This document shows, piece by piece, positions 36,058-64,000 of a DNA stretch of 64,000 nucleotides (positions are counted from its first letter, which is position 1; every line of letters begins with the position of its first letter). The stretch is from positions 17,833 to 81,832 of the forward strand of contig CAZIZG010000003.1 in assembly GCA_964543815.1 (NCBI GenBank), in the 5' to 3' direction. The notes below the pieces were generated by a model, which made no database searches, was not told where the DNA came from, and worked only from the letters and a program-made list of their open reading frames with translations. The position numbers and the translations under genes were made by a program. This stretch comes from an uncultured Bdellovibrionales bacterium. Its GTDB lineage: Bacteria > Patescibacteriota > Minisyncoccia > Moranbacterales > UBA1568.

Positions 36058-36167
36058 AAAAATGAAGTGAGCAATTACACCTTTATTATAGCACTTCCCA
36101 AATTCGAGCAAAGAAAAACGGGGAGATGAGCATCATCTTCCCCGAAAGCAGTATCCGGAAATCAGGA

Positions 36168-36602
36168 CTACTGCTGCTTGTCTGGGCCAGCCTTCGGCGA
36201 CCTCGTATCGGTGGTGGTTGCAGCCACCGTCTTCACCTTCGGATCACCCTTGGGTGGCAACTTCTTGGCAGCGACCTTCTTGGCCGAAGCCGAAGCAGCG
36301 ACCGGAGCAGGTGAAACAACCACGGCAGCTGGCGAGGGAGCGGGCGGCGGTGTTTCCGCCGCGGGTGCAGGCGAAGGCGACGCTTGCGACCTGACACCAG
36401 CCACATCAGCGGCAGCATCTATGCCCGCGATGTTCGCGCGGCCAGCGGTTGCCATGAGGCTCTGGTTGTTGGGATCATCAGCGCCGGTCAGCTTGGCGGT
36501 CCAGGCCTTGCCGGCATCCACCATGCTCGAAACGGTACCACAACCCGCGAGGGACAGCAGCGAGACGAATGCTCCGAGGAGCACGAAACGACTCTTGTTC
36601 AC
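36168..36602 (-). CDS. Pro/Ala-rich lipoprotein in a high-GC island
   Basis: MNKSRFVLLGAFVSLLSLAGC is a lipobox signal peptide. The region is 65 % GC and Pro/Ala-rich, unlike the backbone. Confidence 0.6.
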   Translation of the reverse strand: MNKSRFVLLGAFVSLLSLAGCGTVSSMVDAGKAWTAKLTGADDPNNQSLMATAGRANIAGIDAAADVAGVRSQASPSPAPAAETPPPAPSPAAVVVSPAPVAASASAKKVAAKKLPPKGDPKVKTVAATTTDTRSPKAGPDKQQ

Positions 36603-36685
36603 GAGAACACTCCTTGAAACACCGAATCACCTATCGGCACCTTCTTTATAGCTTCTTTTGATATTTCCCGCAATACTCCTCTCTC

Positions 36686-36928
36686 TTATTGAGTACACAA
36701 CATAAGTTTTTCAGACCGAGATATTTTTTTGACCCGTGCCTCCTCCTCAGCCGCGCGGGAACGAGTGCGGAAGCGCTTCGTGTAACGAAGCGTCACTGGC
36801 CGCCGACTCCTCGTATACTTAGCGCCCCGCGGAGAAGTATTGTGTTCCTTGAGGCGCCTCGTCACATCAGTCGTGATTCCAGTGTAGAGTGTCCCATCGG
36901 CACACTCGAGTATATAGAGCGTATACAT
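36686..36928 (-). CDS. GIY-YIG nuclease-family protein (UPF0213, YhbQ-like)
   Basis: 80 aa, [30 protein letters not shown]...GAKYTR. Confidence 0.75.
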
Positions 36929-36950
36929 ACAAAAAACTTTACTCCAGCCA

Positions 36951-37628
36951 TCAACTCACCACTCGCCAGAATTTCTCCGCAAGATTAGACAAGCGACCAG
37001 TGTTGCCAGCCAGAGAAAAGAGGATCGCCCCGTAGACCGCGAGATTAATAAGGGTATCATCGGAACGTAACTTGAGCGCACTCCCAAGCGCCTTGTTGGG
37101 AATAAAGGGTGTGCCATGAAAATTAACCGCTGCATACAGCTCATCCAAGACGAGGTGTCCGATATAGCCCGCTATCATCGCCATCCCGAGAATAAACGCC
37201 TCCATATCGGCAAAAGAAAAGTGTCCGGCCAGGAAAAATGTCACCAGTCCCGCGAGTAATGCCGCCGGCAGAGAGTGAGCCATCCCCCGATGACGCGTAA
37301 AACGTTTGAAGAAAAATCCTACCACGAGATACACAAACGCGAACGACCCGACCGACCACTCGATGATTCGCCACACATCATGCGGAGTTTCCTGATGGGC
37401 CGATGATCCCGTCATCACTGCTGCTACGAGCGCAAACGAACCAAATGAAACATGGAACGGGATACCAGAGTCACTGTCCATATCAGGAAGTACTGATCCA
37501 AGGACAGCCGCTACAAACACGACCGAAAGAAAACTCGGCGCATCGAAATACGCGAGTGAGATAAGTCCGGCCGCCCCGAGAATACCTGAGGCGATACCGA
37601 GCGAAACGTGAGATCGAAAACTAGCCAT
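36951..37628 (-). CDS. Membrane-bound metal-dependent hydrolase (YdjM/DUF457 family)
   Basis: Polytopic protein with His-rich motifs (SHVSLG..., [25 protein letters not shown]). Confidence 0.55.
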
Positions 37629-37715
37629 AAGAAAGATACCTTGAGTATACCATTGGCCGGTAATCCCAGACAAAAGAAAAAACCACTCACAGAGATTCTG
37701 AAGAGTGGCGGACGT

Positions 37716-38549
37716 CTACGTCACAGCAGGAAGGGCAAGGAGATTAAGTCGGGCGAACTGATGGGCCAGCATAAGCGCCGGCTTGAGTTGATTCATGAGA
37801 GCGACATGCCGGTTGATGTTCGGGATAACGCGCAGTTCGGCAAGCGCCTCCACATACCTCCGTTCCATCCCAAGCAGTTCATGAAACAAATCGACCGAAT
37901 GGGCGATATTGAGACGTTGGTAGTGTGCTCTGACGACCGCCTTACTGTCATCAGTCAAATCGAAATCCGGCGCCAGACACTGAAGCATCTTGCGAGCCGC
38001 ATGAACCGGAAATGACAGGGCCTTGCCCAGGACGGCAGCGAGTTCGGCGTCACTCATGACGGCGAGACTTTCGAGGGCCCGATCGAAGCTTCCGCACTTA
38101 CGCACCAAGTAACCATGAACCTCTTCGAGGTAGGTCATACGCTTGGGTGCGATATACGACAGCGGGTCCTCTTTGATGATGCCACCGGCACAGGCTGCCC
38201 CACAGAGGTGAGCGTGGTACATCGGGTAGAACGAATGACTCCCCCGCAAAGCGAGTTCACTGTCCACTGCGATGATGCGCAGCGGCACGAATCGGCCAGC
38301 CGCAGCCGAGCGCAGATGTTGCTGGAGCGAGACGATGATCTCCTGCGTCCCGGGGCGATAGATGAGCAAAGCATCGATGTCGCTCCGCTCATCGCAGTCG
38401 CCCCGGAGAGTCGATCCGTAGAGCAATGCCCCGATGACCGCCGGTTCCGCCGCCAGGTCACGCCGCAATTGATTGCTGATATACGAAAATGCTTCAGGAC
38501 GCGGGATAGCATCCGTCCGAAGCTCGTCCCAGGTAAAAACACGGGCCAT
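37716..38549 (-). CDS. Nucleotidyltransferase-domain protein (ANT/KNTase-like), in a high-GC island
   Basis: GALLYGSTLRGDCDERSDIDALLIY is the minimal NTase motif (GSx9-13DxD) plus a C-terminal helical domain. GAGGGGG RBS 7 nt before the ATG at 38549. Confidence 0.6.
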   Translation of the reverse strand: MARVFTWDELRTDAIPRPEAFSYISNQLRRDLAAEPAVIGALLYGSTLRGDCDERSDIDALLIYRPGTQEIIVSLQQHLRSAAAGRFVPLRIIAVDSELALRGSHSFYPMYHAHLCGAACAGGIIKEDPLSYIAPKRMTYLEEVHGYLVRKCGSFDRALESLAVMSDAELAAVLGKALSFPVHAARKMLQCLAPDFDLTDDSKAVVRAHYQRLNIAHSVDLFHELLGMERRYVEALAELRVIPNINRHVALMNQLKPALMLAHQFARLNLLALPAVT

Positions 38550-38671
38550 GGATACCCCCTCATAGTTATGAGTTGTCAAAAAAACGATAGTGCATCGTAG
38601 CGAAAAATTACCTGAAAGTCAACAAAAATCCCCCCTTAGGGGGATCGAGAAAACCAAGAAAGAAAAAATAT

Positions 38672-39925
38672 CTACACTACTCGAATGGCCTCATCAAGAG
38701 TGGTTACGCCGTTCATGACCAAATTGACTGCGTTTTGACGGAGCGTGGTCATCCCAGTTTTTTCGGCATACATCTGAAGTTCATTCATCGAAGCCTTATC
38801 CACAATCATGGCCCGCAGTTCATCGTCAAAGATAAGCACCTCAAACACTCCGGTCCGTCCCCGATATCCGGTATGGTTACACTCGTCACAGCCTGCCCCA
38901 CGCCGATAGTTCACTGACATACCCTGCATCCCGAGGAGGTTGATATACTCAGCACGTGGCGTCTGATCCGGGGCGCTACATGACGGACAAATCTTGCGTA
39001 CCAACCGCTGAGCGATAACGCCGCGGATAGCATACGCGATCATACCGCGTTCGATATTCAAATCAATCAGACGAGCGATAGCACCAATAGTGGTGTTGGC
39101 ATGAAGGGTCGAATACACCATCCGACCGGTGAGTGACGCCTGGAGAGCATGGTCAGCCGTCTCAGCATCACGAATTTCTCCAATCATCATCACGTCCGGA
39201 TCCTGACGGAGAATACTCTTCATGCCCTTGGCAAATGTGAAGCCAATTTCCGGCAAAATCTGACTCTGGCGCATATCATCGATGAACACTTCCACCGGAT
39301 CTTCAAGCGTCATGATATTGCGCTCCTTGCGATTGATTTCCATGAGCATCGAGTACAGCGTCGTTGTCTTGCCGGAACCAGTCGGACCAGTCGTGAGTAT
39401 CATGCCGTAACTTGCCATAGTCAGTTGACGAACCCGCAGACGGATATCCTCATCAAATCCGATATCGTCAAGCGAAATGAGCATATCGGAACGATTGAGG
39501 AGTCGCAGCACTGCCGTCGGACCATTGACCGTCGGAAACATAGACACGCGCACATCGATGATGCGCTCCTTACCATCAGTTTCATCCTGAAACTTCACCG
39601 CGAAATGACCATCTTCTGGTAGCCGCACTGGTCCCACCTCCATATTGGCCAGTACCTTGAGTCGATTGATGACATGCTCATGATCATCCTTCGACAAATG
39701 TTCGTAGGTTTGGAGCACACCATCCACCCGAAAACGCACCAACACTTCATTGGGCATCGCTTCGACGTGGACATCAGAGCTCCCCTGACGAGCCGCTTCA
39801 CGCACCATAGGCGTCACGAGGTCAGCCCCGGTCGCGTCCCGCAGTACGATACTGCCCTCAAGTGGCGTTCCTAATTCGGTAGTCGTATTCATATGAATGG
39901 AGTATATCACACCCATCTTTCCCAT
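38672..39925 (-). CDS. pilB: Type II/IV secretion ATPase, GspE/PilB family (short form)
   Basis: 417 aa with Walker A TGPTGSGKTTTL, Asp box, Walker B and tetracysteine CPSC...CDEC motifs. Confidence 0.85.
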   Translation of the reverse strand: MGKMGVIYSIHMNTTTELGTPLEGSIVLRDATGADLVTPMVREAARQGSSDVHVEAMPNEVLVRFRVDGVLQTYEHLSKDDHEHVINRLKVLANMEVGPVRLPEDGHFAVKFQDETDGKERIIDVRVSMFPTVNGPTAVLRLLNRSDMLISLDDIGFDEDIRLRVRQLTMASYGMILTTGPTGSGKTTTLYSMLMEINRKERNIMTLEDPVEVFIDDMRQSQILPEIGFTFAKGMKSILRQDPDVMMIGEIRDAETADHALQASLTGRMVYSTLHANTTIGAIARLIDLNIERGMIAYAIRGVIAQRLVRKICPSCSAPDQTPRAEYINLLGMQGMSVNYRRGAGCDECNHTGYRGRTGVFEVLIFDDELRAMIVDKASMNELQMYAEKTGMTTLRQNAVNLVMNGVTTLDEAIRVV

Positions 39926-40440: not shown

Positions 40441-41115
40441 ATGTCTGCCTGCCACATGGCGGATTTTTGTCCCTCCCACAACTCCAAGGAGTATCACGTG
40501 CACATCATCATCGCCCCCTGTTTCACCAACGGTGACCTCCCGGGCAACGCCCTGGAACTATGTGAGCTGTTCATGCTCCGCCGTGAAGAAGAGGTGCCGA
40601 TCGAAAGCTACACCATCGTCTACGATGGCAAGGAACACGTGGCTCAGGTCGGCCCCGGCAATCACCAGCCGGCCCTCTTCCTTCTCTACTGCATGACCAA
40701 GTCGGCCGCTCCGGCCTTCGAGTTCACGCCTGAGATGCGCCAGCTCGCCCGAGACTACTTCGGTGACGAGATCATGGCAAGCGCCATCCCCTTCGACACC
40801 CGGTACACGACCGTCCACGCCCTCCACGGCCATACGGTCTACATCCGTCTCACCCTCAAGCCGGGCTATCGCAACTGCATGGCCGCCAGCCGCACGGTCG
40901 AGGAAGTCATTGCGCACGGCTGGGACATGCAGGCAGAACTCGGGCCGCAATCGGAAGCGCCCTTCCTGCGCCTGGCCCTCGAACGGTTCTTCGCAGCCAT
41001 CGAAGCAAGGACGCTGCAAGTGGCCGATACCGAGCGGGGACCCTGGCCGACACCCATGTGGGCTGACCGAGCCACCACGCTGCAGCAACTCCTCGGCCAG
41101 ACCGAGACCACCTAA
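40441..41115 (+). CDS. Hypothetical protein, paralog A of a two-member family in this window
   Basis: About 224 aa. Shares ...LFLLYC..., ...LKPGY..., ...HGW..., LGP.S.AP... blocks with the ORF at 54986..55606. High GC. Followed by a terminator. Confidence 0.5.
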   Translation: MSACHMADFCPSHNSKEYHVHIIIAPCFTNGDLPGNALELCELFMLRREEEVPIESYTIVYDGKEHVAQVGPGNHQPALFLLYCMTKSAAPAFEFTPEMRQLARDYFGDEIMASAIPFDTRYTTVHALHGHTVYIRLTLKPGYRNCMAASRTVEEVIAHGWDMQAELGPQSEAPFLRLALERFFAAIEARTLQVADTERGPWPTPMWADRATTLQQLLGQTETT

Positions 41116-41136
41116 TCCGCAACGCGGAGACATACA

Positions 41137-41162
41137 AGCCCGACTCATGCCGGGCTTTTTAT
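41137..41162 (+). terminator. Rho-independent terminator
   Basis: AGCCCG-actcatgc-CGGGCT followed by TTTTATT. Confidence 0.55.
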
Positions 41163-41198
41163 TATGCAACTCTTGATACATCGCCTCCGAAAGGAAAG

Positions 41199-41414
41199 CT
41201 ATGACTGTTTCGAATCCGTTGATCCAGTCTCGATTTTACACGTAGAAATTCCGAAGAGTGAATACAACGCACAGAAACGCATGACTCCCGTGAGAAAAAC
41301 GACGATACCAACTGCGACAAGCCACCACATCATCGAGAGGGAGCCGTACCCAACCAGGATAGCCCCTAAAACCATGCGCACGAGACGATCCACACCTCCA
41401 ACATTTTGTTTCAT
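41199..41414 (-). CDS. DUF2892-family small membrane protein (YgaP-associated)
   Basis: 71 aa, ...GGVDRLVRMVLGAILVGYG...FLTGVMRFCALYSLFGISTC. Confidence 0.55.
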   Translation of the reverse strand: MKQNVGGVDRLVRMVLGAILVGYGSLSMMWWLVAVGIVVFLTGVMRFCALYSLFGISTCKIETGSTDSKQS

Positions 41415-41450
41415 AACAAAAACGTTACTATTTATATCTGTAGTGTAACA

Positions 41451-41762
41451 CTATTTTTTATTGCACACACTGAGAGAAAAAGTGATTGTATCACGTGCTC
41501 GTATCTGTTCCTTCGTTCTCACACTCGCCTTGAGTGGCAAGAGGTAGCCACCCGAACGCTTGTCGGGAAAAATTGATGTCCGCCAAGTAGTCGTGCCAAT
41601 AGTGACCGAAACCGGGAGCGACCCCCATCCCCGGGAGCGACTTCCGAACTGCTCTTTGATGAGCGTGGATTCTTTTTTTGGCAAGGTGACAAAATGCCAG
41701 CTCGCGATATCTCCAGGATAGAGCCACACCTCACCCTTCATAGTAAACGTATTTCCCGACAT
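41451..41762 (-). CDS. DUF1905-domain protein
   Basis: 103 aa, ...GEVWLYPGDIASWHFVTLPKKES... Confidence 0.5.
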   Translation of the reverse strand: MSGNTFTMKGEVWLYPGDIASWHFVTLPKKESTLIKEQFGSRSRGWGSLPVSVTIGTTTWRTSIFPDKRSGGYLLPLKASVRTKEQIRARDTITFSLSVCNKK

Positions 41763-41767
41763 ACTGA

Positions 41768-42163
41768 TCAGCGATTAAGCACCGTGATGGTGAGTTGCAA
41801 AATTGTAGCAAATGACACCCAGAGGAGATATGGGATTTGAGCATAGGCAATGAGACGAGCGTGAGGAAAGATAGCCATCATCGCCCAGACAATAGTCCCC
41901 AGTACGAGCAGGATATCGATCGAGGCCAAGAGATTATTTTTCAGTCCAAACTGAATCCAGGTAAAAGAAAAATTGAAGACGAGATTAAGCACGAACGGCA
42001 GCGCCACCACGAGTGGTATCTGCCCCTGCCAAGCCAGGAAGAAAACCCGACCAAACGTGAGTGCGATGATGACGTAAAGCACCGACCAGACCGGACCAAA
42101 CACCCAAGCTGGTGGTGACCAGGTGGGTTTGATAAGCATGGCGTACTCAGTGAAATTATTCAT
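41768..42163 (-). CDS. tspO: TspO/MBR-family protein (tryptophan-rich sensory protein), N-terminally short
   Basis: 131 aa, WSPPAWVFGPVWSVLYVIIALTFG... and the W-rich TM pattern typical of TspO. Confidence 0.6.
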   Translation of the reverse strand: MNNFTEYAMLIKPTWSPPAWVFGPVWSVLYVIIALTFGRVFFLAWQGQIPLVVALPFVLNLVFNFSFTWIQFGLKNNLLASIDILLVLGTIVWAMMAIFPHARLIAYAQIPYLLWVSFATILQLTITVLNR

Positions 42164-42430: not shown

Positions 42431-42892
42431 CTACAGCGCGCCCTGGGTGGCCAGATGGAGACTCTCCATGAGACCAAAGATGTCTACCAGTGCCAGACGT
42501 TGCTCACCGGTATCAACCGTCGCCATGATGTGCGTGAGCGTATCCGGGTGAGGATGCCCATCCACCAGTCGCACTTGATCTGCGGTGATGTCAAGCACTT
42601 CGGAAACACCATCGACGACGACGCCGATGATGCGGCCAGAAAGGTTCAACACCACGACCACCGTCAGCGGACCGAGACTGCTCTCACAACCCGCCACGAT
42701 GCGCAAATCGATGATGGGGATAGTGACCCCGCGAAGATTGAACACTCCCCTGAGAAACGCTGGCGCCCCATCGATGTGACTCGGCTGCTCGTAGGAGCGG
42801 ATTTCCTGAGCGAGCAGGATATTGAGTCCGTAGTACTCGCCACCGAGACGAAATACCAGGTACTCCCCAGCCAAAGAAGCAGCTTCGGTCAT
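42431..42892 (-). CDS. cheW: Chemotaxis coupling protein CheW (orphan)
   Basis: 153 aa, EYLVFRLGGEYYGLNILLAQEI...VFNLRGVTIPIIDLR... is the CheW-domain pattern. High GC. Confidence 0.8.
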   Translation of the reverse strand: MTEAASLAGEYLVFRLGGEYYGLNILLAQEIRSYEQPSHIDGAPAFLRGVFNLRGVTIPIIDLRIVAGCESSLGPLTVVVVLNLSGRIIGVVVDGVSEVLDITADQVRLVDGHPHPDTLTHIMATVDTGEQRLALVDIFGLMESLHLATQGAL

Positions 42893-43167
42893 GCTGCCCT
42901 CCTTCGGCGCGACTTGGGAGGCAACTCGTGCAACCTGCTGAGCGCGATGCGCGCCTCACGAGCCGTCACTTCCAGAGTGACCAGCGCCTCGTACGAAAAA
43001 GCGCCAATCACCTTGCCCGAACCAGGTCGATAGAGCACGGCCACACTGCCGCTCGGATTGTCCCGAGCAAAGACGACCGCTTTCATCGGAAACTTGGTCC
43101 TGACACCATCAGCCGTTGTCCCCTGACAACGGAGCTTTTCGCGACGCGTGTTCATCGAAACACCCAT
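42889..43167 (-). CDS. Hypothetical protein downstream of cheW
   Basis: About 90 aa (MGVSMNTRREKL...). Overlaps the cheW start by 4 nt. Confidence 0.3.
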   Translation of the reverse strand: MGVSMNTRREKLRCQGTTADGVRTKFPMKAVVFARDNPSGSVAVLYRPGSGKVIGAFSYEALVTLEVTAREARIALSRLHELPPKSRRRRAA

Positions 43168-43291
43168 GTTGCATACCTCACTGTGGTACGCCCAGGCCCG
43201 GGATGGGCCTGCTAGCGACATCGACCCACCCTGTGAGTCGATGAAATATCATCCCCTATTTCAAAATCCCTGTCAACTCCTTCTCGTTTCA

Positions 43292-43330
43292 TATAAAAAG
43301 CGAAAGGTCCCGGCAAAACGCGTTTGCACG
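43292..43330 (-). terminator. Near-perfect 30-bp palindrome functioning as a minus-strand terminator
   Basis: GGTCCCGGCAAAACGCGTTTGCACGGGACC. On the minus strand it is followed by UUUCGCUUUUUAUAU. Confidence 0.5.
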
Positions 43331-43622
43331 GGACCAGTCCTTTCAGACAACTGAGCGGGGCGAGGCTTTTGGGGCCACAAGACCGCTTCATTGTGTAACC
43401 CGGACAGGGCTACGTTAGTCGATGAAGGCTTACGCTCCCTAGGGGGAACAACCTTTCTTCGAACTCGGTGGAATCACACCGAGGGTTTACTGCAGCGGAC
43501 GTGGTTTCCCGTGGGACTCCTCATCCAGTTTCTCCTCGTTTTGGTTGATGACTCTGGTGGTACTCTCTCGAGTATACACCCTTGAGGGATCTCCGCGGCC
43601 GTATCTTCGCGACCGCAGTGCG

Positions 43623-43823
43623 TCAGCTCACCGGCTTCGGAGGCACGGTACCGACGCTGTTCAGCAGGAACCCCGGGTAGGACTCGGGTCCCTTGCCGAA
43701 CAGACCCTGGCATGCGAGCCGGAAACCCATTCGCGCGACCTGCAGCAGATGTACCGTGAAGGTAAACGCTGCGGCCAGAACGGGAACCCGAATCCAGGCG
43801 GCCAGGGCATGCACGAGGCTCAT
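43623..43823 (-). CDS. Small hydrophobic protein (66 aa), RBS-supported
   Basis: MSLVHALAAWIRVPVLAAAFTFTVHLLQVARMGF..., with AAGGGAGG 5 nt before the ATG. Confidence 0.4.
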   Translation of the reverse strand: MSLVHALAAWIRVPVLAAAFTFTVHLLQVARMGFRLACQGLFGKGPESYPGFLLNSVGTVPPKPVS

Positions 43824-43872
43824 GGAGCCTCCCTTCAGTGGGCGCCGAAGCGTCAGGCCAGCGTGGCCAGAC

Positions 43873-44160
43873 GCACGGGCGCGGCCACCGGGTCGCGCAG
43901 CACCGAGGTGCCGGCGCCGTGGCGGCCGTTCTTCAGGTCGACGAAGTTCGAGAGCACGCCGATCACGTTCACGGCGCACCCACCAGGCCCGAGGCGGGGC
44001 CGGCGGCCAGCGGCAGCAGGTTGGTTTCCTGGGAAGCGAACACGCCGGAACGCGCCAGGGACACGCTGCCGAAGCCCGAGTCGAAGAGGCCGATCTTGCC
44101 GGTGCCTTCGCCGCCGCTGCCTTGCAACACACTCACCTTGCCGGTGGTGGGGTCTTTCAT
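43873..44160 (-). pseudogene. Frameshifted gene for a Gly-rich hypothetical protein (about 100 aa)
   Basis: AAGGAGA RBS, then ATG at 44160 giving MKDPTTGKVSVLQGSGGEGTGKIGLFDSGFGSV...GLVGAP, then stop. The +2 frame continues as VNVIGVLSNFVDLKNGRHGAGTSVLRDPVAAPVRLATLA. A 1-nt loss in ccg(g)tg is implied. Confidence 0.4.
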
Positions 44161-44401
44161 TAGGATCTCCTTGATCAAGTTGCGGGAACTCCGCTCGACA
44201 ACCAAGAGGTTGAACGAGCGGATAATTGAAGCCTAGTCATAAGCCACAAGTATCCGCTCGCTCGAAACTATTTCACTGCAAAAATTGAAAGAACTTTCCT
44301 ATCGATAGTACCAAAAAGTTTACTACCGTTCAAGCCAAAAGCCCGAAAGAAAACTCTACGCCATATATCTATTTCTGTCAACCCCTAGAACCACAAAAAA
44401 G

Positions 44402-44457: not shown

Positions 44458-44464
44458 AATCAGA

Positions 44465-45043: not shown

Positions 45044-45160
45044 GGCACCCTCCTTTGCATACGTTGCAATTGATAAAAGACTCGAAAGGAACTACGAACA
45101 CTCCTTTATAGCATAAAAATACATTTTTGTCAATATGAGAAAACATCCGCAAAAAATAAA

Positions 45161-54452: not shown

Positions 54453-54470
54453 ACTCGAAAAATACGTAAT

Positions 54471-55676: not shown

Positions 55677-55682
55677 TGTACC

Positions 55683-56054: not shown

Positions 56055-56086
56055 ACTCGTACAATAAAAAGTTAGCTGTTACTTAT

Positions 56087-56437
56087 TTAAAAACTTTTTC
56101 CATCAAATTTCTCCGAGTGAAGGGTCGAGAGATCTATCCCTTCAAGACAGCGAACGTTCACCATCACCGTCGCATTGCCCGATGGGTCGGTACCGCGACC
56201 GAATGACTGAACTCCGCAGACCTTGCAAAAGAGATGAGCAATTTTTTTGGTATTGAACCGGTACTCAGTGAGCACGTCTTCACCAGAGAGGAGAGTGAAA
56301 TCCGCTGCCGGAACAAAAGCGAGGATAAATCCCTTGGCTTCGCAGTGTGAACAGTTACAGACAAATGTCTGTGCCAAATCCGTCGTCACTTCGTACCGTA
56401 CCGCCCGACAATGACAGCCACCCGTGTATTTCGCCAT
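56087..56437 (-). CDS. GFA-family protein (glutathione-dependent formaldehyde-activating / CENP-V-like Zn domain)
   Basis: MAKYTGGCHCRAVRYEV...CNCSHC...CKVCG, the Cys-rich GFA signature. AGGAAA RBS. Confidence 0.65.
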   Translation of the reverse strand: MAKYTGGCHCRAVRYEVTTDLAQTFVCNCSHCEAKGFILAFVPAADFTLLSGEDVLTEYRFNTKKIAHLFCKVCGVQSFGRGTDPSGNATVMVNVRCLEGIDLSTLHSEKFDGKSF

Positions 56438-56564
56438 AAGCATTTTCCTGTTAATAATCCTCCCCATTTTACACCTATCACTCGGTATGCCAAAATCACC
56501 CTCGTCTCCAGGAGAAAAATAAAAGTCGGCCTTGTGGCCGACAATACGGAAAATATGTAAACCA

Positions 56565-56783
56565 CTAGAGTTTCTCAAGCTCCTTCAAATCCTTATCCGG
56601 GAGATAAAGAATAGCGAAACCAACAATGATACCGGCTACCGCTGTGTACAGACGATTACCATCAAAGACAGTCGTATCTACGATATCAAGCAGATGCCAA
56701 ATACCCCGCCAGACCAACACCAATCCAACGACTATAGCCAAATTATGGGCGAAATAGGCAACTAAATTTCCTTTCTTCATCAT
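56565..56783 (-). CDS. Small two-TM membrane protein, hypothetical
   Basis: 72 aa, ...LAIVVGLVLVWRGIW...AVAGIIVGFAILYLPD... Confidence 0.4.
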   Translation of the reverse strand: MMKKGNLVAYFAHNLAIVVGLVLVWRGIWHLLDIVDTTVFDGNRLYTAVAGIIVGFAILYLPDKDLKELEKL

Positions 56784-56816
56784 AAGGTTGTGTAAGTATG
56801 ACTTTAGTATATCACG

Positions 56817-57353
56817 TCAAAACAGCCACCAGACAATTCCAAAGAAAACTGTCGCGAGAAGCACGAGTTCAAACGCCAGTTTGAGATTGGGTTTCAGATA
56901 CTGCTCCTCAAGCCAGTAGGGATTACCATGCTGCGCTGCTACTACCCGCTGCTCCTCACGATTGCGAAAGTACCGCTTGGGACTATACGACGCAAGCGTA
57001 AAGTAGCCACGGGAGAACGGGTGAAGCCACTGAATCCCCCAACCGCCATCGAGCGTGTCATGGATAAAATGAGCGAGCGTCCCCATCCCCCACACGAGAC
57101 CATAGGCCGGATAGAAACTCCCGATAAGGAGAGCGCCGCCGACACCGACAATAAGCGGGAGATGAAACAAATCACGATGCTCGTGAGCAAACTGGTTGGA
57201 ACGAAAACGGTTTCGGATGAGCCATACGATAAAGTCTATGTCCGGCGCCAAGGTCGCGAACACCGCAAAGAGCATGAGCACTACCATATCGCCACCACTC
57301 CCGAGTGCCACAAAAAATCCGATGACCAGTCCTACCGCAATATCGATATACAT
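56817..57353 (-). CDS. Membrane-bound metal-dependent hydrolase (YdjM/DUF457-like), second copy
   Basis: 178 aa, ...FATLAPDIDFIVW...HEHRDLFHLP...HFIHDTLDGGWG... Confidence 0.55.
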   Translation of the reverse strand: MYIDIAVGLVIGFFVALGSGGDMVVLMLFAVFATLAPDIDFIVWLIRNRFRSNQFAHEHRDLFHLPLIVGVGGALLIGSFYPAYGLVWGMGTLAHFIHDTLDGGWGIQWLHPFSRGYFTLASYSPKRYFRNREEQRVVAAQHGNPYWLEEQYLKPNLKLAFELVLLATVFFGIVWWLF

Positions 57354-57362
57354 AGAAAAATA

Positions 57363-58967
57363 TTACACTGATGCGAGACCAAGTTTTTTGAGCCGGGAAC
57401 GGATAGCGCCCGGTTTTCGTCCGAGCTTTTCCGCCATCTCTTTCATTTGCTTGCCTCGCTCAAACATTTTTTTGAGCTTTGCTTCCTCATCGGCCGTCCA
57501 TGCTCGATAGGCCTGAGGATGTATGGCTCGTATCTCGCCGAAAGCCTCTGCTGATTCCTCGTTCTTCTTCGTTTTTTTTCTCTTCGGTTCCTTCTTTGCT
57601 TTTTTCTCCTTGCCACCACAGATCACGATAAAGTTGTGTTCCATCTCGGCGATACGTTCCGGGGTGAGACGGGCGTAATCCTCTTCGGCCCGTTCGGATG
57701 CTGCCCGCAAACGAATATCTTCTTCAAGCACTACTGGGTGCACCTCGAAAGCTCGAGCGTTGACCCCAAGGAGATGAACACCGGAAAGTGTGCGTACCCG
57801 AGAGAGCGCCACATAGCCCTGACCGTATTCAAACGTCTGCGAAAGATCCATCACCGCCGCATCAAGCGACACCCCCTGACTCTTATGAATAGTCATCGCC
57901 CAGGCAAGACGAAGCGGTATCTGAGTAATTTTGGCAAACACCTCATCTCCTTCGGCGATAGTCCACTCCATTGGCTCGGTCTCTACCTTCAATCCGTCGG
58001 TAGTCCGAACGATGGGATATTTTTTGTCTGCCGTAAATCCGATGACAGTGCCGAGCGTTCCGTTGACATAACCGGCACCGGGATTGTTTTTGGTAAACAT
58101 GACCGCCGCTCCTACTTTGAGCTCGAGCCGCTCTGGTGAGAGACAGCCACGCACGAGAGCACTGGTGAGTGCCTCTGGACCACGGAGCGCCATCGTATAG
58201 GCATGCGTTTTGCCAGACAACTTCTTCAATTCAGCATTGTTCAAACTATCGACGTTGGCATTGTGAGCATAGAGTCTGGTCATGTCGTCCGGTGCTTCCG
58301 ATGGTTCGACGATTCGGTCCCGGACCGTTTCAAAATGACTCTCATCAAATTCGTTGCGTCGGATAGCAGAAAGAACGCCGAGAAATATCTCATCCTCCTG
58401 ACGATGCTGCTCGGTGAGATAGCACACTGTCGGCCGAAGAGCACTCCAGACTTCGGATTCAAACGCAAATTCGACCGGTCCCTTTTCTTTCCCCTGGACC
58501 GGTGGCAACTGAAAGAAGTCCCCGACCAACACCACCTGTAATCCTCCGAACGGTAGCTGCGTTCGCCGCACCCGCCGACACACCCGCTCCACCATCATGA
58601 GCACTCGCCCATCGAGCATCGAGACCTCATCAATGATCAGTACCTTGGCCCGTTTGATTCGTTTACTGACATACCCGTTTTCGGCGATGTGCTTGAGTGA
58701 CTCATCATCAAGCGACGACTGCACCCCGATACCGCTCCACGAATGAATAGTCATGCCGTGGATATGGGTAGCAGCGATGCCGGTCGACGCTGTCACAGCA
58801 AAGTCTATCTCGTGTTCACGGAGATAGTCGGTATAGGCACGGATGGTGTGGGTCTTGCCGGAACCGGCCTCCCCGGTCAAAAACACGTGGGCACCGGTCT
58901 TCAAAATAGCGAGGGCTTGGTCTTGGGTCATATTCCCCATCCTACCATCCCCCATCCCTCGGAGCAA
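57363..58967 (-). CDS. ATP-dependent DNA helicase, Pif1/RecD-like, with a C-terminal basic HTH tail
   Basis: 534 aa with Walker A GEAGSGKTH, Walker B LIIDEVSM and a helicase C-terminal region. Ends with a KK-rich segment and a sigma-70 region-4-like helix. Confidence 0.75.
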   Translation of the reverse strand: MLRGMGDGRMGNMTQDQALAILKTGAHVFLTGEAGSGKTHTIRAYTDYLREHEIDFAVTASTGIAATHIHGMTIHSWSGIGVQSSLDDESLKHIAENGYVSKRIKRAKVLIIDEVSMLDGRVLMMVERVCRRVRRTQLPFGGLQVVLVGDFFQLPPVQGKEKGPVEFAFESEVWSALRPTVCYLTEQHRQEDEIFLGVLSAIRRNEFDESHFETVRDRIVEPSEAPDDMTRLYAHNANVDSLNNAELKKLSGKTHAYTMALRGPEALTSALVRGCLSPERLELKVGAAVMFTKNNPGAGYVNGTLGTVIGFTADKKYPIVRTTDGLKVETEPMEWTIAEGDEVFAKITQIPLRLAWAMTIHKSQGVSLDAAVMDLSQTFEYGQGYVALSRVRTLSGVHLLGVNARAFEVHPVVLEEDIRLRAASERAEEDYARLTPERIAEMEHNFIVICGGKEKKAKKEPKRKKTKKNEESAEAFGEIRAIHPQAYRAWTADEEAKLKKMFERGKQMKEMAEKLGRKPGAIRSRLKKLGLASV

Positions 58968-58981
58968 AAACCCTCTCAGGG

Positions 58982-59668
58982 TTACAGCACATCAATGATA
59001 CGGAGTGCCCGTTCCGTGAAAACATAGAGTTTGGCAGGACGACTCGGACCATCGCGCCGCACTTTTCCTGTCTCCTTTACCAATTGAATTTCGTGTATCT
59101 TTTTACGAAAGTTTCTTTTATCAAGCGTTCTCCCCAAAAGAATTTCGTACAGTGATTGCAATTCCGACAGAGTAAATTCTTTCGGCATAAGTCCAAAGGC
59201 GATATTGGAGTACCCTAATTTGCTCACGAGACGCTTGCGACCGAAACGCACTATCTCGGCGTGATCAAAAGCAAGCTTCGGGAGATGATCAACGTCTTTC
59301 CAACCAATGTCCGCATAGTACTCTGTCACTTTAGGCAGAAACATATCATCTCGAACCAAAGCAAAGTAGGCCACCGATACACTCCGGCTACGCACGTCCC
59401 GATTGGGTTCACCAAAGGTAGCGAGTTGTTCTAGGTACATACCGTCCACCCCGGCCTTTTCCGAAAGCACCCGGAGTGCCGCCTCTTCAAGAGACTCATC
59501 CACGCGCACCAATCCACCAGGAAGTGCCCACATATCAGCGTAGGCATCGCCGGCAATCTTTACGAGTAGCACCTTGAGCTTACCGTGACTGACCGTAAAG
59601 ATGAGGGTGTCAACCGCCACTTTGATATGAGCAGACTGCTTCTTTTTTGATAATTTTGAGCGAACCAT
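58982..59668 (-). CDS. nrtR: Nudix hydrolase with a C-terminal winged-helix domain (NrtR-like regulator of NAD metabolism)
   Basis: 228 aa with Nudix box ALPGGLVRVDESLEEAALRVLSEKAGV and a C-terminal wHTH-like domain. Last gene of the pnuC-nadR operon. Confidence 0.55.
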   Translation of the reverse strand: MVRSKLSKKKQSAHIKVAVDTLIFTVSHGKLKVLLVKIAGDAYADMWALPGGLVRVDESLEEAALRVLSEKAGVDGMYLEQLATFGEPNRDVRSRSVSVAYFALVRDDMFLPKVTEYYADIGWKDVDHLPKLAFDHAEIVRFGRKRLVSKLGYSNIAFGLMPKEFTLSELQSLYEILLGRTLDKRNFRKKIHEIQLVKETGKVRRDGPSRPAKLYVFTERALRIIDVL

Positions 59669-59683
59669 AGAGTTTGTTCTTTT

Positions 59684-60724
59684 CTAACTTAGCTGTTCCC
59701 TCCTCATAGTGTCAATTATACACCCGAAAGATTCTTCTCGTGGGAAACGCTGGAACACGTCACTCCCCGATACGAGCAGACGTTCACACGCTCGAACAGC
59801 TTGAGCCAAGCGTTCTTCCGGCGTCCCAGAAACAACCAGGTGCGGAATATCTTCTGTGGTCAAAAGTTCCTGAAAACGCTTCTGCATCGTATGGCGGATA
59901 TATTCTCCATCACGCATGCCATCATCGACAAACGGTATCTCATCCCCCGTAAGAATCACCAGATCATAGCGTCGGCCCTTGGCGACCTGATCAACCTCGG
60001 CGCTCAGAGTTCCCCGATACCGCTCATGCCACAAACGAGTAGCCCAGGCATTGGTGTCACAAAAGAGCACTTTGTTCGCCAAACGCGCATAGGCATCTTC
60101 GACACGATTCTGAGTGTTGGCGATAAAGACAAACTCGTCACTCTGCCAGGCCGTTTGTGATGGCAGCTTTCCTTCGCTGTAGAGTCGTCCAAATTCGGGC
60201 ACCCACACGGTCTCGAAGTATTCTGCCAAGGACCGAGAAAGTGTCGTCGTCCCAGTTGATTCAGCTCCCACCAGAGCCACTCGCCGAACTAGGGCCGCTC
60301 GAGCACTCGCTCCCAAGTACTGCCACGACGTGTAGGGATTTTCACGAATACGAGTACCAGAAATGGGAACTTCGTGACGCTCCCGATCTACGAGTATGTG
60401 CTCCGCACCTAAATAACGAGCATAGGCATCGCCATAGTCCTCAGAAGTAAAGACTCGGTCCGGAGCATATCCCAGAAAATTTATCGTGTACTCCGCCCAA
60501 CGCTTGGAGTTATCATCATCCATGATGTCACGCATGACTCGCACCTCGATATCGGGAAACATCTCCCGAATCCATACTGCCCGCTCTGCCCCAGTAAAGG
60601 ACTGATCAGACCGATCACAGACGATGACAGTCAGCTGGTCCGACTGCTCCCGTGCGACAGATATGAGATAGGCATGTCCAGCATGAAAGGGATAAAACTT
60701 ACCAATAACCAATCCGCGCTTCAT
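59684..60724 (-). CDS. nadR: Bifunctional NMN adenylyltransferase / ribosylnicotinamide kinase NadR
   Basis: MKRGLVIGKFYPFHAGHAYLI (HxGH nucleotidyltransferase) and GAESTGTTTLSRSLA (P-loop kinase). The start at 60724 overlaps the pnuC stop (ATGA). The longer track ORF includes out-of-frame upstream sequence. Confidence 0.8.
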   Translation of the reverse strand: MKRGLVIGKFYPFHAGHAYLISVAREQSDQLTVIVCDRSDQSFTGAERAVWIREMFPDIEVRVMRDIMDDDNSKRWAEYTINFLGYAPDRVFTSEDYGDAYARYLGAEHILVDRERHEVPISGTRIRENPYTSWQYLGASARAALVRRVALVGAESTGTTTLSRSLAEYFETVWVPEFGRLYSEGKLPSQTAWQSDEFVFIANTQNRVEDAYARLANKVLFCDTNAWATRLWHERYRGTLSAEVDQVAKGRRYDLVILTGDEIPFVDDGMRDGEYIRHTMQKRFQELLTTEDIPHLVVSGTPEERLAQAVRACERLLVSGSDVFQRFPREESFGCIIDTMRREQLS

Positions 60725-61425
60725 AAGACAGCCACCTCCTCTCTCTTTGTTCCCTTGATTCCCGAGATAGCCTGTTTCTTCCATTCGGCATGCCAACGGT
60801 AAAGCCCGCTGAGAGCCAAAAGAAGAAAAATCGCGTAGAGCACAGAGACAAACTTTACCTCCTTCGTGTAGTAGAGCCACACTCCGATGATATCGACCAC
60901 AATCCAGAGATACCAATTTTCCAATCGTTGACGAACCAGAAGAATCTGTGCGATGAAACTCGCCACCGTCGTAAAGGCATCGAGATAGGGAAATGATGCT
61001 GCCTCTGGAAACCATAGTGGAAACAACACGTGTATCCGAGCGATGAACGCGCCGAGGATAATTGTCCCCACAATAAGGACAAAGGTCCATCGTATATTTT
61101 CATATTTTGTATTATGACTGATGGTCTCCTGCGTCGGAGATTTCCCCTGCTCTTTCTTGAGACGAAGCCACATCCACCAGCCCCAAAAGCCAGTGACAAA
61201 GTAATAGATCTGTTCGAGAAAATCAGAGTACAGACGAATCTGATAAAAGAGCACCGCAAACAGTATCACCGCCCCGATGCCGATGGGCCAGTTCCAAATA
61301 CTTTTTCTGGCGCACAGCCACACGGTTATGAGATTGAGAATCGTACCACAAAACTCGAGGTAGCTCATGGGATAGTCCCAGAGCGTAAAGAAAACATTGT
61401 TGATATCGAAGAATGAAGCAATCAT
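60721..61425 (-). CDS. pnuC: Nicotinamide riboside transporter PnuC
   Basis: 234 aa polytopic protein with a W-rich N-terminus (...GWWMWLRLKKEQ...) typical of PnuC. Confidence 0.75.
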   Translation of the reverse strand: MIASFFDINNVFFTLWDYPMSYLEFCGTILNLITVWLCARKSIWNWPIGIGAVILFAVLFYQIRLYSDFLEQIYYFVTGFWGWWMWLRLKKEQGKSPTQETISHNTKYENIRWTFVLIVGTIILGAFIARIHVLFPLWFPEAASFPYLDAFTTVASFIAQILLVRQRLENWYLWIVVDIIGVWLYYTKEVKFVSVLYAIFLLLALSGLYRWHAEWKKQAISGIKGTKREEVAVL

Positions 61426-61630: not shown

Positions 61631-62764
61631 CTACGGGTAAATCACCCGGGTGCCGTCGAAGCGCGAGGTGAGCCCGACCGTATAGCCCCGATAGGGCACG
61701 ATACGTCCCGCCACCCGCATATCGACCTCACACAGTTTGGCGAGCTCCTGAACCAAGCTGAGCTCTGGTTCATCAATCACGATAAGTGCTCCCTGGCCGC
61801 CGTTCCAGGTCTCGTAGCACTGCTCCGAATTCATGCCGCGCCATTCGGCACACTGGCGCATGATGAACGGCGGATCGAACAAGTTGTCGAGTTCTGCCGT
61901 CAGACCGAGACGGTGCAGCACGCTCCCGAACTTGCCCTTGAAGGCACCCCCCGAGAGATGTGTCACCAGATGGAGCCGGACCGTAGGCCGGAGCAGCGGG
62001 TCGAACCAACCATGGAGGCGGTTGAGCATGCGGTCATACTGGACGGAAGGGACAGCACAGCGCAGGATGGCATCGGTCGCCTTGGTGTTCTTCCACCACT
62101 CGTCCCCGAATTCCTTGGCGAGCGCCTTGCGCACCGAACTGATACCGTTGCTCCGGAAGGTATCGCCGAACACCACGATGATCTGGCCCGGCTTCACGCT
62201 GTCACCAAGGATCATCTTGTCAGGATGGTAGACACCGGTCATCGAGCCGCCCCAGTTGAAGCGCACCAATGCGTCCGGGTTTTCCGAACCGACACAGACG
62301 CCGAGTTCGGCCGTCTCGCCGGTGAGCAGCACGTACTTGTGCTGATCAGCCAGTTCTGCAAGGCCAATCATGATCTCCTGACAATGCCGGTAGGTTTCAG
62401 AACCAACCTCACCAAGAGAGCTGACATCGAAGATGTTCTGGAACACGAGCGGCAGACCGCCGTAGCGCGTGATGTCCATGGCACACATGGCCACCACGTC
62501 GTTCGCGGCATCGCCATAGGTACGAGCAGCATCGATGAGCACCACTTTGGTGCCGATGCCGTCCATGGCACCGGTGAGCAGACACTCGTCCGGCAAATCA
62601 ACCGGTCGCCAGCCACGCGGCCCTCGGAAATCACCCCTGGACAGATCGGTGACCTGCACAAAGCGTGAATTGCCATAACTCTCCCGGCACAGCTGCCCGA
62701 CGAAAGCACTGAAGGCATCGCCGGCAGGAATGTTGACGCCGTCTTGCTTGTAGAGATCAGTCAC
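61631..62764 (-). CDS. AIR synthase-related protein (PurM-like), high GC
   Basis: AAGGAG RBS, then GTG at 62764. VTDLYKQDGVNIPAGDAF...GAMDGIGTKV...ETAEL matches the PurM N-domain pattern (YKDAGVDIDAG...DGVGTKL). 377 aa. Confidence 0.6.
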   Translation of the reverse strand: MTDLYKQDGVNIPAGDAFSAFVGQLCRESYGNSRFVQVTDLSRGDFRGPRGWRPVDLPDECLLTGAMDGIGTKVVLIDAARTYGDAANDVVAMCAMDITRYGGLPLVFQNIFDVSSLGEVGSETYRHCQEIMIGLAELADQHKYVLLTGETAELGVCVGSENPDALVRFNWGGSMTGVYHPDKMILGDSVKPGQIIVVFGDTFRSNGISSVRKALAKEFGDEWWKNTKATDAILRCAVPSVQYDRMLNRLHGWFDPLLRPTVRLHLVTHLSGGAFKGKFGSVLHRLGLTAELDNLFDPPFIMRQCAEWRGMNSEQCYETWNGGQGALIVIDEPELSLVQELAKLCEVDMRVAGRIVPYRGYTVGLTSRFDGTRVIYP

Positions 62765-62904
62765 GGTTGGCTCCTTGTGTGACAACGCTTGGAAAATCTG
62801 CCAAGCCAGAAAAAAACCACTTTCTTGTTTTTTTAATGAACGTTTCAGTATGCCCTGACCTGCCTTTTTTGTAAAGTTACCGGTCACTTTTCATCATCCT
62901 CACC

Positions 62905-62948
62905 ACTGAAAATCAAAAACCCACCGAAAGCGGGATCCGCTTGGTGGG
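62905..62948 (-). terminator. Rho-independent terminator after gene 62951..63211
   Basis: CCCACC(g)AAGCGG-atc-CCGCTTtcGGTGGG. On the minus strand it is followed by UUUUUGAUUUUC. Confidence 0.5.
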
Positions 62949-62950
62949 TA

Positions 62951-63211
62951 TCAGTGCTGCGAGAAAGTGCCGGCGCTCAGGGCGTGCGCCGAAGTTTCGA
63001 TGCCGTTGAACGGAGCGGTCCGGACATGGTGCCCGGACCAGCCATATTCGGCCATGAACGCAATCTTGCACAGCTCTTCAGCTCGAGCCCGAATCTCGGG
63101 TCCCGTGAGGGGCCGCTCGAAGTGAACCACCGTACACGTGTGATCGGGCTGGCCATCTCTCATGGCCATGAGCGAATAGCCCGCGGCCGTAAATCTTTCA
63201 TCCATCATCAT
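62951..63211 (-). CDS. Hypothetical protein (about 85 aa)
   Basis: GAGGAG RBS, then MMMDERFTAAGYSLMAMRDGQPDHTCTVVHFERPL... High GC. The long overlapping ORF 62951..63613 is an Arg-rich frame artefact upstream of this start. Confidence 0.4.
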   Translation of the reverse strand: MMMDERFTAAGYSLMAMRDGQPDHTCTVVHFERPLTGPEIRARAEELCKIAFMAEYGWSGHHVRTAPFNGIETSAHALSAGTFSQH

Positions 63212-63221
63212 CTCCTCTCGA

Positions 63222-63701
63222 CTACTCGAGCCAGTGCGCCACTGCGAGCAGGGATTCGATGTTGGGGTTAGTGCGCAAGTGCCAGCGCTGATCCTTGAGA
63301 ACCGCCGGATTGAACTGGTGCATGCGGATGGCCACCACCACGGCAATCGCCTCGTTCCACAACCGATTCGGACACGACGACGCGTAGGCGAGGTAGAAAT
63401 CGTAGGCATGGACCGCCACCGCCGTACTGGCGCCATCGCCCATCCAACGACTGCTCGTGAGCCTGTCATGCGACAGAAGCCAGTGCAGCTGAGCCCCGGC
63501 TTGACGCTGAAACTCGCTGGTAATTTCCGGAGTGAGCGGCGCTGTGCGAAAGCCCAAGACGGGAGCGCCGTTCTTGGCCATGACCGTACACCAGCCATCG
63601 ACCTCATCGTCAAACAGACTGGCTGCCTTGCCGAGATCGATCACACGACTGGTCGTCCGTACGATGCGGGCCAAGTATTCACCATTCGCCGGAATAGACA
63701 T
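63222..63701 (-). CDS. Hypothetical protein (159 aa)
   Basis: GGGGG RBS, then MSIPANGEYLARIVRTTSRVIDLGKAASLFDDEVDGW... High GC. No known motif. Confidence 0.4.
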   Translation of the reverse strand: MSIPANGEYLARIVRTTSRVIDLGKAASLFDDEVDGWCTVMAKNGAPVLGFRTAPLTPEITSEFQRQAGAQLHWLLSHDRLTSSRWMGDGASTAVAVHAYDFYLAYASSCPNRLWNEAIAVVVAIRMHQFNPAVLKDQRWHLRTNPNIESLLAVAHWLE

Positions 63702-63872
63702 GGGATTCCCCCTTTCGAAGAGAATTGAAGAACTCGCCCTTGCATGGAAGGACCACGTACCATACCACACCCTCCCCTTTCTGTCCACCCTACACTCCGC
63801 CCCATACTCAACTTACTTTATTTCCCCTCTTTCCTAATTCCTCACTTTTTCACGGTCGTAAGAAAGTGAGGA

Positions 63873-63906
63873 GAAAGAAAAAAGCCGAAGGGGTATTTCC
63901 TTCGGC
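63873..63906 (-). terminator. Rho-independent terminator
   Basis: GCCGAAGG-ggtattt-CCTTCGGC. On the minus strand it is followed by UUUUUUCUUUCU. Confidence 0.6.
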
Positions 63907-63937
63907 GAGGTTACTCATCTGTCAGAGATCGCTGGCA

Positions 63938-64000
63938 TCACGGATAGCGCATGGCTTGAAACGCCTGAAGCGACACGCCCGTCAGCCGCTCGACGATACG
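63938..64000 (-). CDS. 3' end of a gene entering from beyond the window (...RIVERLTGVSLQAFQAMRYP*)
   Basis: The reading frame is open to the window edge on the minus strand. The stop at 63938 is followed by a terminator. Confidence 0.3.
   Translation of the reverse strand, partial: RIVERLTGVSLQAFQAMRYP

Follow-up and report, generated by a model that had tools for sequence, protein, structure and literature searches.

Reports on the Patescibacteria describe genomic islands by the hundreds, restriction–modification (R-M) islands and gene transfer mostly within the phylum (Gios et al. 2025, mSystems, PMC12455944). The classical islands of Proteobacteria are linked to tRNA genes, bear an integrase and are flanked by direct repeats (Juhas et al. 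2009, FEMS Microbiol Rev, PMC2704930). We analyzed a 64,000-nt stretch of contig CAZIZG010000003.1 (assembly GCA_964543815.1), hereafter the window, which belongs to one real genome of the candidate phyla radiation (CPR), of the Candidatus Moranbacteria lineage, with about 48 % GC and nearly all genes on one strand. Its right-hand part, from 36 kb to beyond 64 kb, is very probably a genome plasticity zone that holds several independent acquisitions of different origin.

Like the published Patescibacteria islands (PMC12455944), this zone shows atypical blocks in a small CPR genome, a cargo of hypothetical and R-M genes, putative donors that would be mostly Patescibacteria and occasionally other phyla, and assembly-independent support. 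It differs from them by its gene-by-gene resolution into single-gene units made of a promoter, a Shine–Dalgarno (SD) sequence, a coding sequence and a terminator, almost all co-oriented, by the contrast between these SD-rich units and an SD-poor backbone, and by two recombination scars. Moreover, its R-M system is of type III and not of type I. With the classical islands (PMC2704930) it shares atypical GC content and codon usage, accessory cargo, presence/absence polymorphism among relatives and short direct repeats at some boundaries. However, it has no tRNA, integrase or mobility genes, it is a patchwork of inserts ranging in GC from 0.32 to 0.72, and its direct repeats are not att sites but copies of a gene end and of a terminator. 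The zone adds a well-resolved case to a phenomenon already known: the literature on Patescibacteria covers islands, R-M islands and transfer mainly within the phylum, and the current understanding is unchanged. Its most useful details are the SD dichotomy, the scars and a CheY gene of apparent Burkholderiales type.

Sliding-window composition shifts regime at about 36 kb. The backbone at positions 1–36000 is homogeneous (GC 0.477), with a standard deviation of GC over 300-nt windows of 0.033 against 0.083 between 36 and 64 kb, where GC ranges from 31 % to 72 %. The GC content at third codon positions (GC3) is 0.480 ± 0.030 in 29 backbone genes. About 15 genes lie above it at 0.64–0.95, and the z-scores of single genes reach +8.4 and −3.8 (table 1). 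GC-normalized tetranucleotide usage compared with the backbone gives r = 0.55 for the pooled high-GC genes and r = 0.79 for the R-M block, against 0.92 ± 0.02 for equal-sized backbone chunks. By GC3 and by tetranucleotide usage, the zone thus deviates from its host as genomic islands do. This heterogeneity is genuine and far outside what chance would give, although the initial annotation overstated its amplitude and its attribution to genes. The initial annotation placed the GC-rich segments at the right coordinates and their GC is indeed elevated, but they average 53–61 % and not 60–65 %, and the R-M block has 39 % GC instead of 33 %. Several genes listed as GC-rich cargo (TspO, DUF1905, the YgaP-like transmembrane (TM) protein, PspC, DUF1428 and GFA), and DUF1801 as well, are at only 0.48–0.52. 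The domain names themselves were recovered by Pfam for CheW, Response_reg, PspC, TspO, DUF1398, DUF1428, GFA, DUF1905 and AIRS, as well as for PnuC, NadR, DUF5671 and the short UvrC, with the DUF2892 protein corresponding to the YgaP-like TM family. Pfam also detected NrtR, PIF1 and the pilus genes PilM, PilC and PilB.

Table 1. Segments, genes and operons of the plasticity zone, in window coordinates (z, GC3 z-score relative to the backbone)
Feature	Position	Strand	GC	GC3	Characteristics
Segment	36120–36650		0.61
Segment	37700–38580		0.573
Segment	40000–41160		0.581
Segment	42400–45700		0.583
Segment	46690–47560		0.565
R-M block	47560–54730		0.391		Lowest gene orf247, GC 0.32
Segment	54860–56450		0.532		High only in parB; DUF1428 and GFA 0.49–0.50
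Segment	61630–64000		0.578
lipo144	36168–36602	−	0.64	0.68 (z +3.8)	Lipoprotein: signal peptide, lipobox LAGC, Ala/Pro-rich tail; own SD (AAGGAG) and terminator
Nucleotidyltransferase-domain protein (NTase), 277 aa	37716–38549	−	0.57	0.65	Weak Pfam Polbeta/NTP_transf_2
PilB/T2SSE pilus ATPase	38672–39925	−			Pfam T2SSE 7e-113; backbone anchor
parA, 205 aa	40498–41115	+		0.74 (about 0.74–0.8)	TTGACA promoter, AAGGAG SD, terminator (41136–41157)
YgaP-like TM, DUF1905, TspO	41199–42163	−		0.53–0.58	Pfam; left anchor of accessory block
CheW–orf92 unit	42431–43167	−	0.58–0.60	0.64–0.68	Overlapping stop/start; Pfam CheW 2e-26; strong SDs
GC-rich stretch free of open reading frames (ORFs), 336 nt	43290–43625	−			Downstream of orf66, ends in terminator; tail of gap 43168–43622 (455 nt)
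orf63–orf39–orf66 operon	43623–44160	−	0.64–0.72	0.76–0.95 (orf63 0.86, orf39 0.95, orf66 0.76)	Promoter TTGACA at 44381
orf192 cassette	44465–45043	−		0.64–0.68	HExxH-like motif AHELCH; weak DUF4344 metallopeptidase match
orf124	45228–45602	−	0.68	0.94 (z +8.4)	Orphan, most extreme composition; own promoter (45720), shared terminator module
orf55–PspC + DUF1801	45749–46603	−			Pfam; small mid-GC genes within accessory block
CheY-type single-domain response regulator	46695–47063	−	0.60	0.84 (z +6.6)	Pfam Response_reg 5e-29; SD AAGGAGG; strong terminator at 46688–46661
DUF1398 protein	47168–47560	−	0.56	0.52 (ordinary)	Pfam 1.7e-34
Type III R-M operon	47599–54452	−	0.32–0.42	0.31–0.45 (orf247, orf328, Mod 0.31–0.36, z about −3.5)	Order: AbrB/MazE-like, Mod, orf328, orf247, Res, orf76
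Res	47976–50633	−
Mod	52385–54271	−
AbrB/MazE-like, 58 aa	54276–54452	−
GIY-YIG_b, 84 aa	54463–54767	−	0.35		Pfam GIY-YIG 1.6e-14
parB, 206 aa	54986–55606	+		0.77	Convergent with DUF1428
DUF1428, GFA, orf72, YdjM_b, PIF1 helicase, NrtR, NadR, PnuC	55683–61425	−			Pfam; mid-GC right-hand backbone
AIRS/PurM-like (377 aa, 61631–62764), orf85, orf159	61631–64000	−	0.58–0.61	0.71–0.76 (AIRS-like 0.74, z +6.6; orf159 0.74)

The named homologues of the backbone UvrC all come from Candidatus Moranbacteria or Moraniibacteriota (67–80 % identity), the AIRS-like gene behaves likewise and DUF5671 is present, in a window that contains no rRNA or ribosomal-protein genes; the CPR-like nature ascribed to the backbone was therefore correct. 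Seven related species (L013–L019; GTDB representatives CAZBFG01, CAZCNN01, CAZPXK01, CAYUIR01, CAYNNJ01, CAZHDL01 and CAYWLN01) encode a PilB that is 84–89 % identical. These closest metagenome-assembled genomes are labeled uncultured Bdellovibrionales, which, judging from protein similarities, is probably wrong: UvrC, AIRS-like and parA-family proteins group with Candidatus Moranbacteria. Their gene order is UvrC ... DUF5671, GIY-YIG_a, (YdjM, NTase), PilB, (YgaP, DUF1905), TspO, DUF1428 ... DUF1801, orf72, PIF1. TspO and DUF1428 are neighbors in L014, L015 and L019, and in L013 only orf92 lies between them. In the window they lie 13.5 kb apart, with CheW–orf92, the three-gene operon, orf192, orf124, CheY, DUF1398, the type III R-M operon and the GIY-YIG gene between them. 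Similarly, lipo144 has been inserted as one gene between GIY-YIG_a and DUF5671, whose spacing in L013 and L015 is about 90 nt. We compared the relatives over ±10 kb, that is, in the syntenic neighborhood and not across the whole genome, and found there no counterpart of lipo144, orf164, orf63/39/66, orf192, orf124, orf55–PspC, CheY, DUF1398, the R-M operon or GIY-YIG_b. As expected for genomic islands, these genes are present here and absent from the same site in the seven species. The syntenic regions of the relatives have a 300-nt GC standard deviation of 0.043–0.048, against 0.083 in the zone, with an occasional GC3-rich gene. Conversely, TspO, DUF1905, YgaP_TM (the former DUF2892), DUF1428, GFA and DUF1801 are mid-GC and have counterparts of 61–88 % identity in relatives, located in or close to the corresponding place. 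They are therefore native and do not belong to the island cargo in which all of them but DUF1801 had been counted.

The GC-rich genes or mini-operons lie in AT-rich intergenic DNA and, read on the minus strand, each has a promoter, a strong SD sequence and a hairpin terminator. The promoters are sigma-70-like, with a perfect TTGACA at 47829, 45720, 44381 and 43276. SD sequences were counted 3–12 nt upstream of the start codons that gene calling had assigned in independent contigs. A match of at least 5 nt precedes 10 of the 13 genes with GC3 ≥ 0.64 and 3 of the 37 others (Fisher p = 6e-6; Spearman rho = 0.54); a start-agnostic count gives 11/15 and 11/48. The ribosome-binding sites of the high-GC genes thus differ from those of the backbone, as had been noticed from the sequence. 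This dichotomy suggests that the imported genes arrived with translation signals of their own in a genome that is largely SD-poor.

Homology-facilitated illegitimate recombination during natural transformation is described in Acinetobacter and Streptococcus pneumoniae. Foreign DNA joins beside one homologous anchor and leaves a truncated or duplicated copy of this anchor. In the window, two scars document the physical insertion of single-gene cassettes. The first, at 54798–54886 (−), combines what remains of the 3′ end of another DUF1428 allele, encoding VAYGGFEVLAEG*, with a terminator. It copies the last 12 codons of DUF1428 and forms with 55679–55722 a 44-nt direct repeat (82 % identity; E 1.6e-4) bracketing the parB cassette. 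The second is a 63–67-nt terminator module found at 44392–44457 and 45150–45216 (97 % identity; E 5e-23), which brackets orf192. The 44-nt DUF1428 relic resembles the product that homology-facilitated illegitimate recombination would leave. Such a diverged relic is expected if the incoming DNA came from a related strain and recombined at a single homologous anchor.

We propose that units of one to five genes, each with its own promoter, ribosome-binding site and terminator, would have been inserted one at a time between the anchors DUF5671, GIY-YIG_a, PilB, TspO, DUF1428 and PIF1. The resulting patchwork would draw on different gene pools: GC-rich genes bearing an SD, the GC-poor type III R-M operon and a GC-poor GIY-YIG mini-element. 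The GC-rich pool may itself comprise at least one Burkholderiales-type gene, several genes from other, probably GC-richer, Patescibacteria and several orphans. CPR bacteria are thought to take up DNA via type IV pili and DprA/ComEC; the window contains pilus genes, and DprA is present in a relative. After uptake, homology-facilitated illegitimate recombination on one homologous flank would have produced the two scars. Accessory transcription units are co-oriented with the backbone in 12 of 14 cases (hand count from the gene map; binomial p = 0.0065), and selection may subsequently have retained mainly co-oriented inserts. By this route, a streamlined, probably host-dependent bacterium would gain accessory genes between conserved ones, in small, self-contained units oriented like the backbone, with other Patescibacteria and at least one lineage of Proteobacteria among the sources. 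The SD-poor versus SD-rich contrast and the two scars are possible screening markers for acquired genes or host links in CPR genomes.

The named homologues of CheY all belong to Aquabacterium, Burkholderiaceae or Burkholderiales (71–73 % identity), and its best plasmid match is to a Comamonadaceae plasmid (61 %). Its closest matches (75–78 %) lie on contigs of 48–51 % GC, in unrelated contexts, with GC3 of 0.70–0.75. Nothing indicates that CheY is transferred together with its promoter and terminator as a block, as the flanks of these closest homologues are not conserved with the window. For the AIRS-like protein, the best named homologues are from Moraniibacteriota (62 %) and Parcubacteria/Patescibacteria (54–57 %), and the orthologue in a relative of 49 % GC also has a raised GC3 (0.65). 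Homology searches revealed no donor for orf124 and CheW; the CheW homologues of L018 and L019 have GC3 of 0.70–0.71. On these similarities, CheY appears to be of Burkholderiales type and the AIRS-like and parA/parB genes CPR- or Moranbacteria-restricted, which makes the origins mixed. The description of the islands as proteobacterial in style accordingly fits CheY but not the PurM-like gene and parA/parB. Massive recent horizontal transfer, also suggested initially, has partial support from the 13.5-kb block and from single genes such as lipo144, which the relatives lack in their syntenic region, and from CheY, but part of the genes listed in its favor are native and others are restricted to CPR or Moranbacteria. 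The affinities of other genes suggest that transfer took place among Patescibacteria or that the heterogeneity is of long standing. Because most transfers into Patescibacteria originate in other Patescibacteria (PMC12455944), this mixed result matches the published picture.

The mosaic could also arise from mis-joins stitching high- and low-GC pieces of other organisms onto a CPR contig, a chimera that the initial annotation had considered. Large GC jumps do coincide with gene boundaries, and contigs break recurrently at two places: at 45187, inside the 63-nt repeat, in Logan contigs, and at 40973–40978 inside parA, where contigs arrive from both sides in three samples and two of them diverge from the window in a few terminal bases. 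Yet 28 contigs of other assemblies, retrieved by exact-protein look-up from at least 15 runs or analyses (ENA ERZ27282xxx/ERZ27283xxx, k141_ names; ERZ3756520 and ERZ1798xxxx, NODE_ names; Logan, SRR6837564-583), are colinear with window positions 26686–64000 at 99.9–100 % identity, without rearrangement or long indels and with a single-nucleotide gap in contig L112 as the sole gap. The three naming styles (SPAdes-like NODE, MEGAHIT-like k141 and Logan) suggest three assemblers. Because the mismatches with the window are scattered single-nucleotide differences (0–3 per contig, 1–3 nt where present), the contigs are not copies of one assembly. Each junction pointed out initially is crossed by 2–10 independent contigs at ≥ 99.9 % identity and is thus independently reproduced; the break at 40973 is crossed by both contig L001 and the window. 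This fork is probably a population or strain variant, or a recombination breakpoint within the parA cassette. Furthermore, the intergenic DNA around the GC-rich coding sequences is AT-rich like that of the backbone and carries promoters, and in one sample the coverage given in contig names is similar for an accessory (4.2x) and a backbone contig (5.0x). A chimera is effectively refuted by these data: the contig is trustworthy and its odd composition reflects biology, not misassembly.

It is very unlikely that one integrated mobile element, be it a prophage, an integrative and conjugative element or an integron-like cassette array, explains the block, although several of its features would suit such an element: numerous small orphans, an R-M system, inverted repeats around a GIY-YIG gene, a 63-nt module that recurs behind each of two successive cassettes, and cassettes bounded by direct repeats. 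Pfam, PHROGs and PADLOC detected no integrase, recombinase or transposase domain, none related to conjugation and no capsid, terminase or portal domain; the 64 kb contain no tRNA target, and orf124, orf192 and parA have no relatives in IMG/VR. In place of att repeats, mobility genes and a tRNA insertion, the sole repeats are the gene-end relic and the terminator module. The latter occurs only twice, reads as a terminator hairpin and shows no integron attC features by eye (no attC model was run). Unlike an integron, with IntI, attI and promoterless attC cassettes, the block has no integrase and its cassettes have their own promoters. The mosaic composition of the block (GC 0.32–0.72) likewise argues against one element. 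Native heterogeneity, in which the GC-rich genes would be old residents whose composition and SD sequences are kept by selection (e.g., on expression level or mRNA stability), also seems unlikely. It would account for the CPR-wide occurrence of AIRS-like homologues and the raised GC3 of the orthologue in the 49 % GC relative, for the Moranbacteria-specific parA/parB family with an L015 homologue of GC3 0.63, and for the high GC3 of the CheW homologues and of the CheY kin on mid-GC contigs. However, the seven relatives lack most of the GC-rich genes in their syntenic region, CheY is clearly betaproteobacterial in affinity and the backbone genes are not, the scars show physical insertion, the GC-normalized tetranucleotide signature deviates too, and the low-GC R-M block would be left unexplained.

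Several points also weigh against a series of independent acquisitions, the reading we prefer. No integrase or transposase (Pfam) and no tRNA gene (ARAGORN) marks the block, and we therefore infer the route of integration from the two scars only. Absence from the relatives applies to their syntenic neighborhood. The CheY kin in mid-GC genomes keep a high GC3, a poor fit to recent import followed by amelioration, and the GC3 of the AIRS-like orthologue indicates that the heterogeneity may be partly long-standing or maintained by selection. In addition, no donors were found for the most extreme genes, orf124 and orf63/39/66.

A doubtful extension of independent acquisition, which we offer as speculation, is that the GC-rich, SD-bearing single-gene cassettes form a distinct circulating pool, captured directionally from the host or neighbors by a largely SD-poor Moranbacterium. 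If so, the Burkholderiales-type CheY, and perhaps the lipoprotein and orphan genes, would indicate a Burkholderiales host, the imported CheW and CheY would be connected with the type IV pilus, and the composition and SD signature could reveal host identity and host-derived functions from CPR genomes.

Within the low-GC part of the zone, PADLOC detected REase_III (3e-225) and MTase_III (6.5e-183), and Pfam assigned ResIII and RE_endonuc to Res, N6_N4_Mtase to Mod and MazE_antitoxin (2.8e-7) to the AbrB/MazE-like protein. These matches to neighboring Mod and Res subunits identify a predicted type III R-M system. As in EcoP15I-like type III systems, Mod and Res share one operon. However, genes of 328 and 247 aa separate them here and a 58-aa AbrB/MazE-like gene precedes Mod. 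The two intervening genes, orf247 and orf328 (50638–52379, −; GC 0.32–0.38), have no Pfam or PADLOC match. GIY-YIG_b is enclosed by 23-nt inverted repeats (54463–54485/54745–54767) that match at 21 of 23 positions, with a chance expectation of 0.01, and pair the 5′ leader with the 3′ end. The native GIY-YIG_a (36686–36928), 39 % identical to GIY-YIG_b, has no such repeats. GIY-YIG_b may be a miniature selfish element, or the repeats may form a long-range mRNA stem.

The paralogues parA and parB (BLASTP, 33 % identity, E 8e-42) are the only clear opposite-strand genes of the region. Their family has 38 cluster representatives among 1.84e9 proteins, with a single named member, from Candidatus Moranbacteria. 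The AF2 model of parA has a pLDDT of 93 but no convincing fold match in the PDB, its similarity extending over only ~70–100 residues to a DapD-like N-terminal domain and VPA0580; parB has weak THDPS_N_2/dapD N-terminal similarity only. The minus-strand ORFs 40558–41181 and 54866–55312 were discarded as genes, since only the plus-strand frames are conserved as paralogues.

Among the other inserted units, the NTase has counterparts of 32–33 % identity in L016 and L019 and none in L013 and L015. Homologues of CheW (45–50 %) and orf92 (38–72 %) occur elsewhere in the neighborhood in L013, L018 and L019, and in JGI metagenomes CheW has relatives of at most 49 % identity, on contigs of 38–64 % GC, which is uninformative as to a donor. 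The orf63, orf39 and orf66 genes are called in independent contigs and have no Pfam match. The 43290–43625 stretch, absent from relatives, has a minimum free energy z-score of −3.76 against shuffled controls and is possibly a structured 3′ untranslated region or a small RNA. No known structured RNA was recognized there by Rfam, at the gathering threshold over the window or in E-value mode over 43100–44500. We found no viral relatives of orf192, and none of orf124 in PLSDB, JGI metagenomes or IMG/VR. Pfam has no match for lipo144, and searches of PHROGs, PADLOC and NCBIfam left lipo144, orf164, parA/parB, orf92, orf192, orf124, orf247, orf328 and orf159 without a function. The Pfam AIRS and NCBIfam purM matches of the AIRS-like protein are sub-threshold. 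Contig L098 extends the high-GC block past 64000 with a SAICAR-synthase-like gene (GC3 0.76) and a 111-aa gene. Further on (L098 1–7425) come a CHAP-domain gene at backbone GC and three genes with GC3 of 0.27–0.33.

In the right-hand backbone, identity to the relatives is 69–81 % for DUF1428, 75 % for GFA, 69 % for orf72 and 81–83 % for PIF1; DUF1801 is 79–83 % identical in L014 and L019, at a different position. Outside the zone, a 126-aa ORF (26524–26904, +; GC 0.59) lies between UvrC and the next gene and is 58 % identical in L014, a conserved GC-rich small gene on the opposite strand amid an otherwise uniform backbone. What looked like a conserved non-coding region of about 600 nt at 27.5–28.2 kb is instead an overlooked cold-shock (CspA-like) gene of 65 aa (27894–28091, −) with a long conserved leader, masked by a 202-aa antisense ORF; this gene and its leader explain the nucleotide conservation with relatives (82–87 %). 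A further element of about 125 nt (28265–28391, +) is directly preceded by a −10-like TATACT, ends like a terminator and has no Rfam match in E-value mode over 27400–28450. It is 91–93 % identical in L013, L014 and L019 and 84 % in a more distant Moranbacterium (L114, L115), far better conserved than the adjacent protein genes, and its orientation to the flanking genes varies by species. This element is a candidate novel small RNA.

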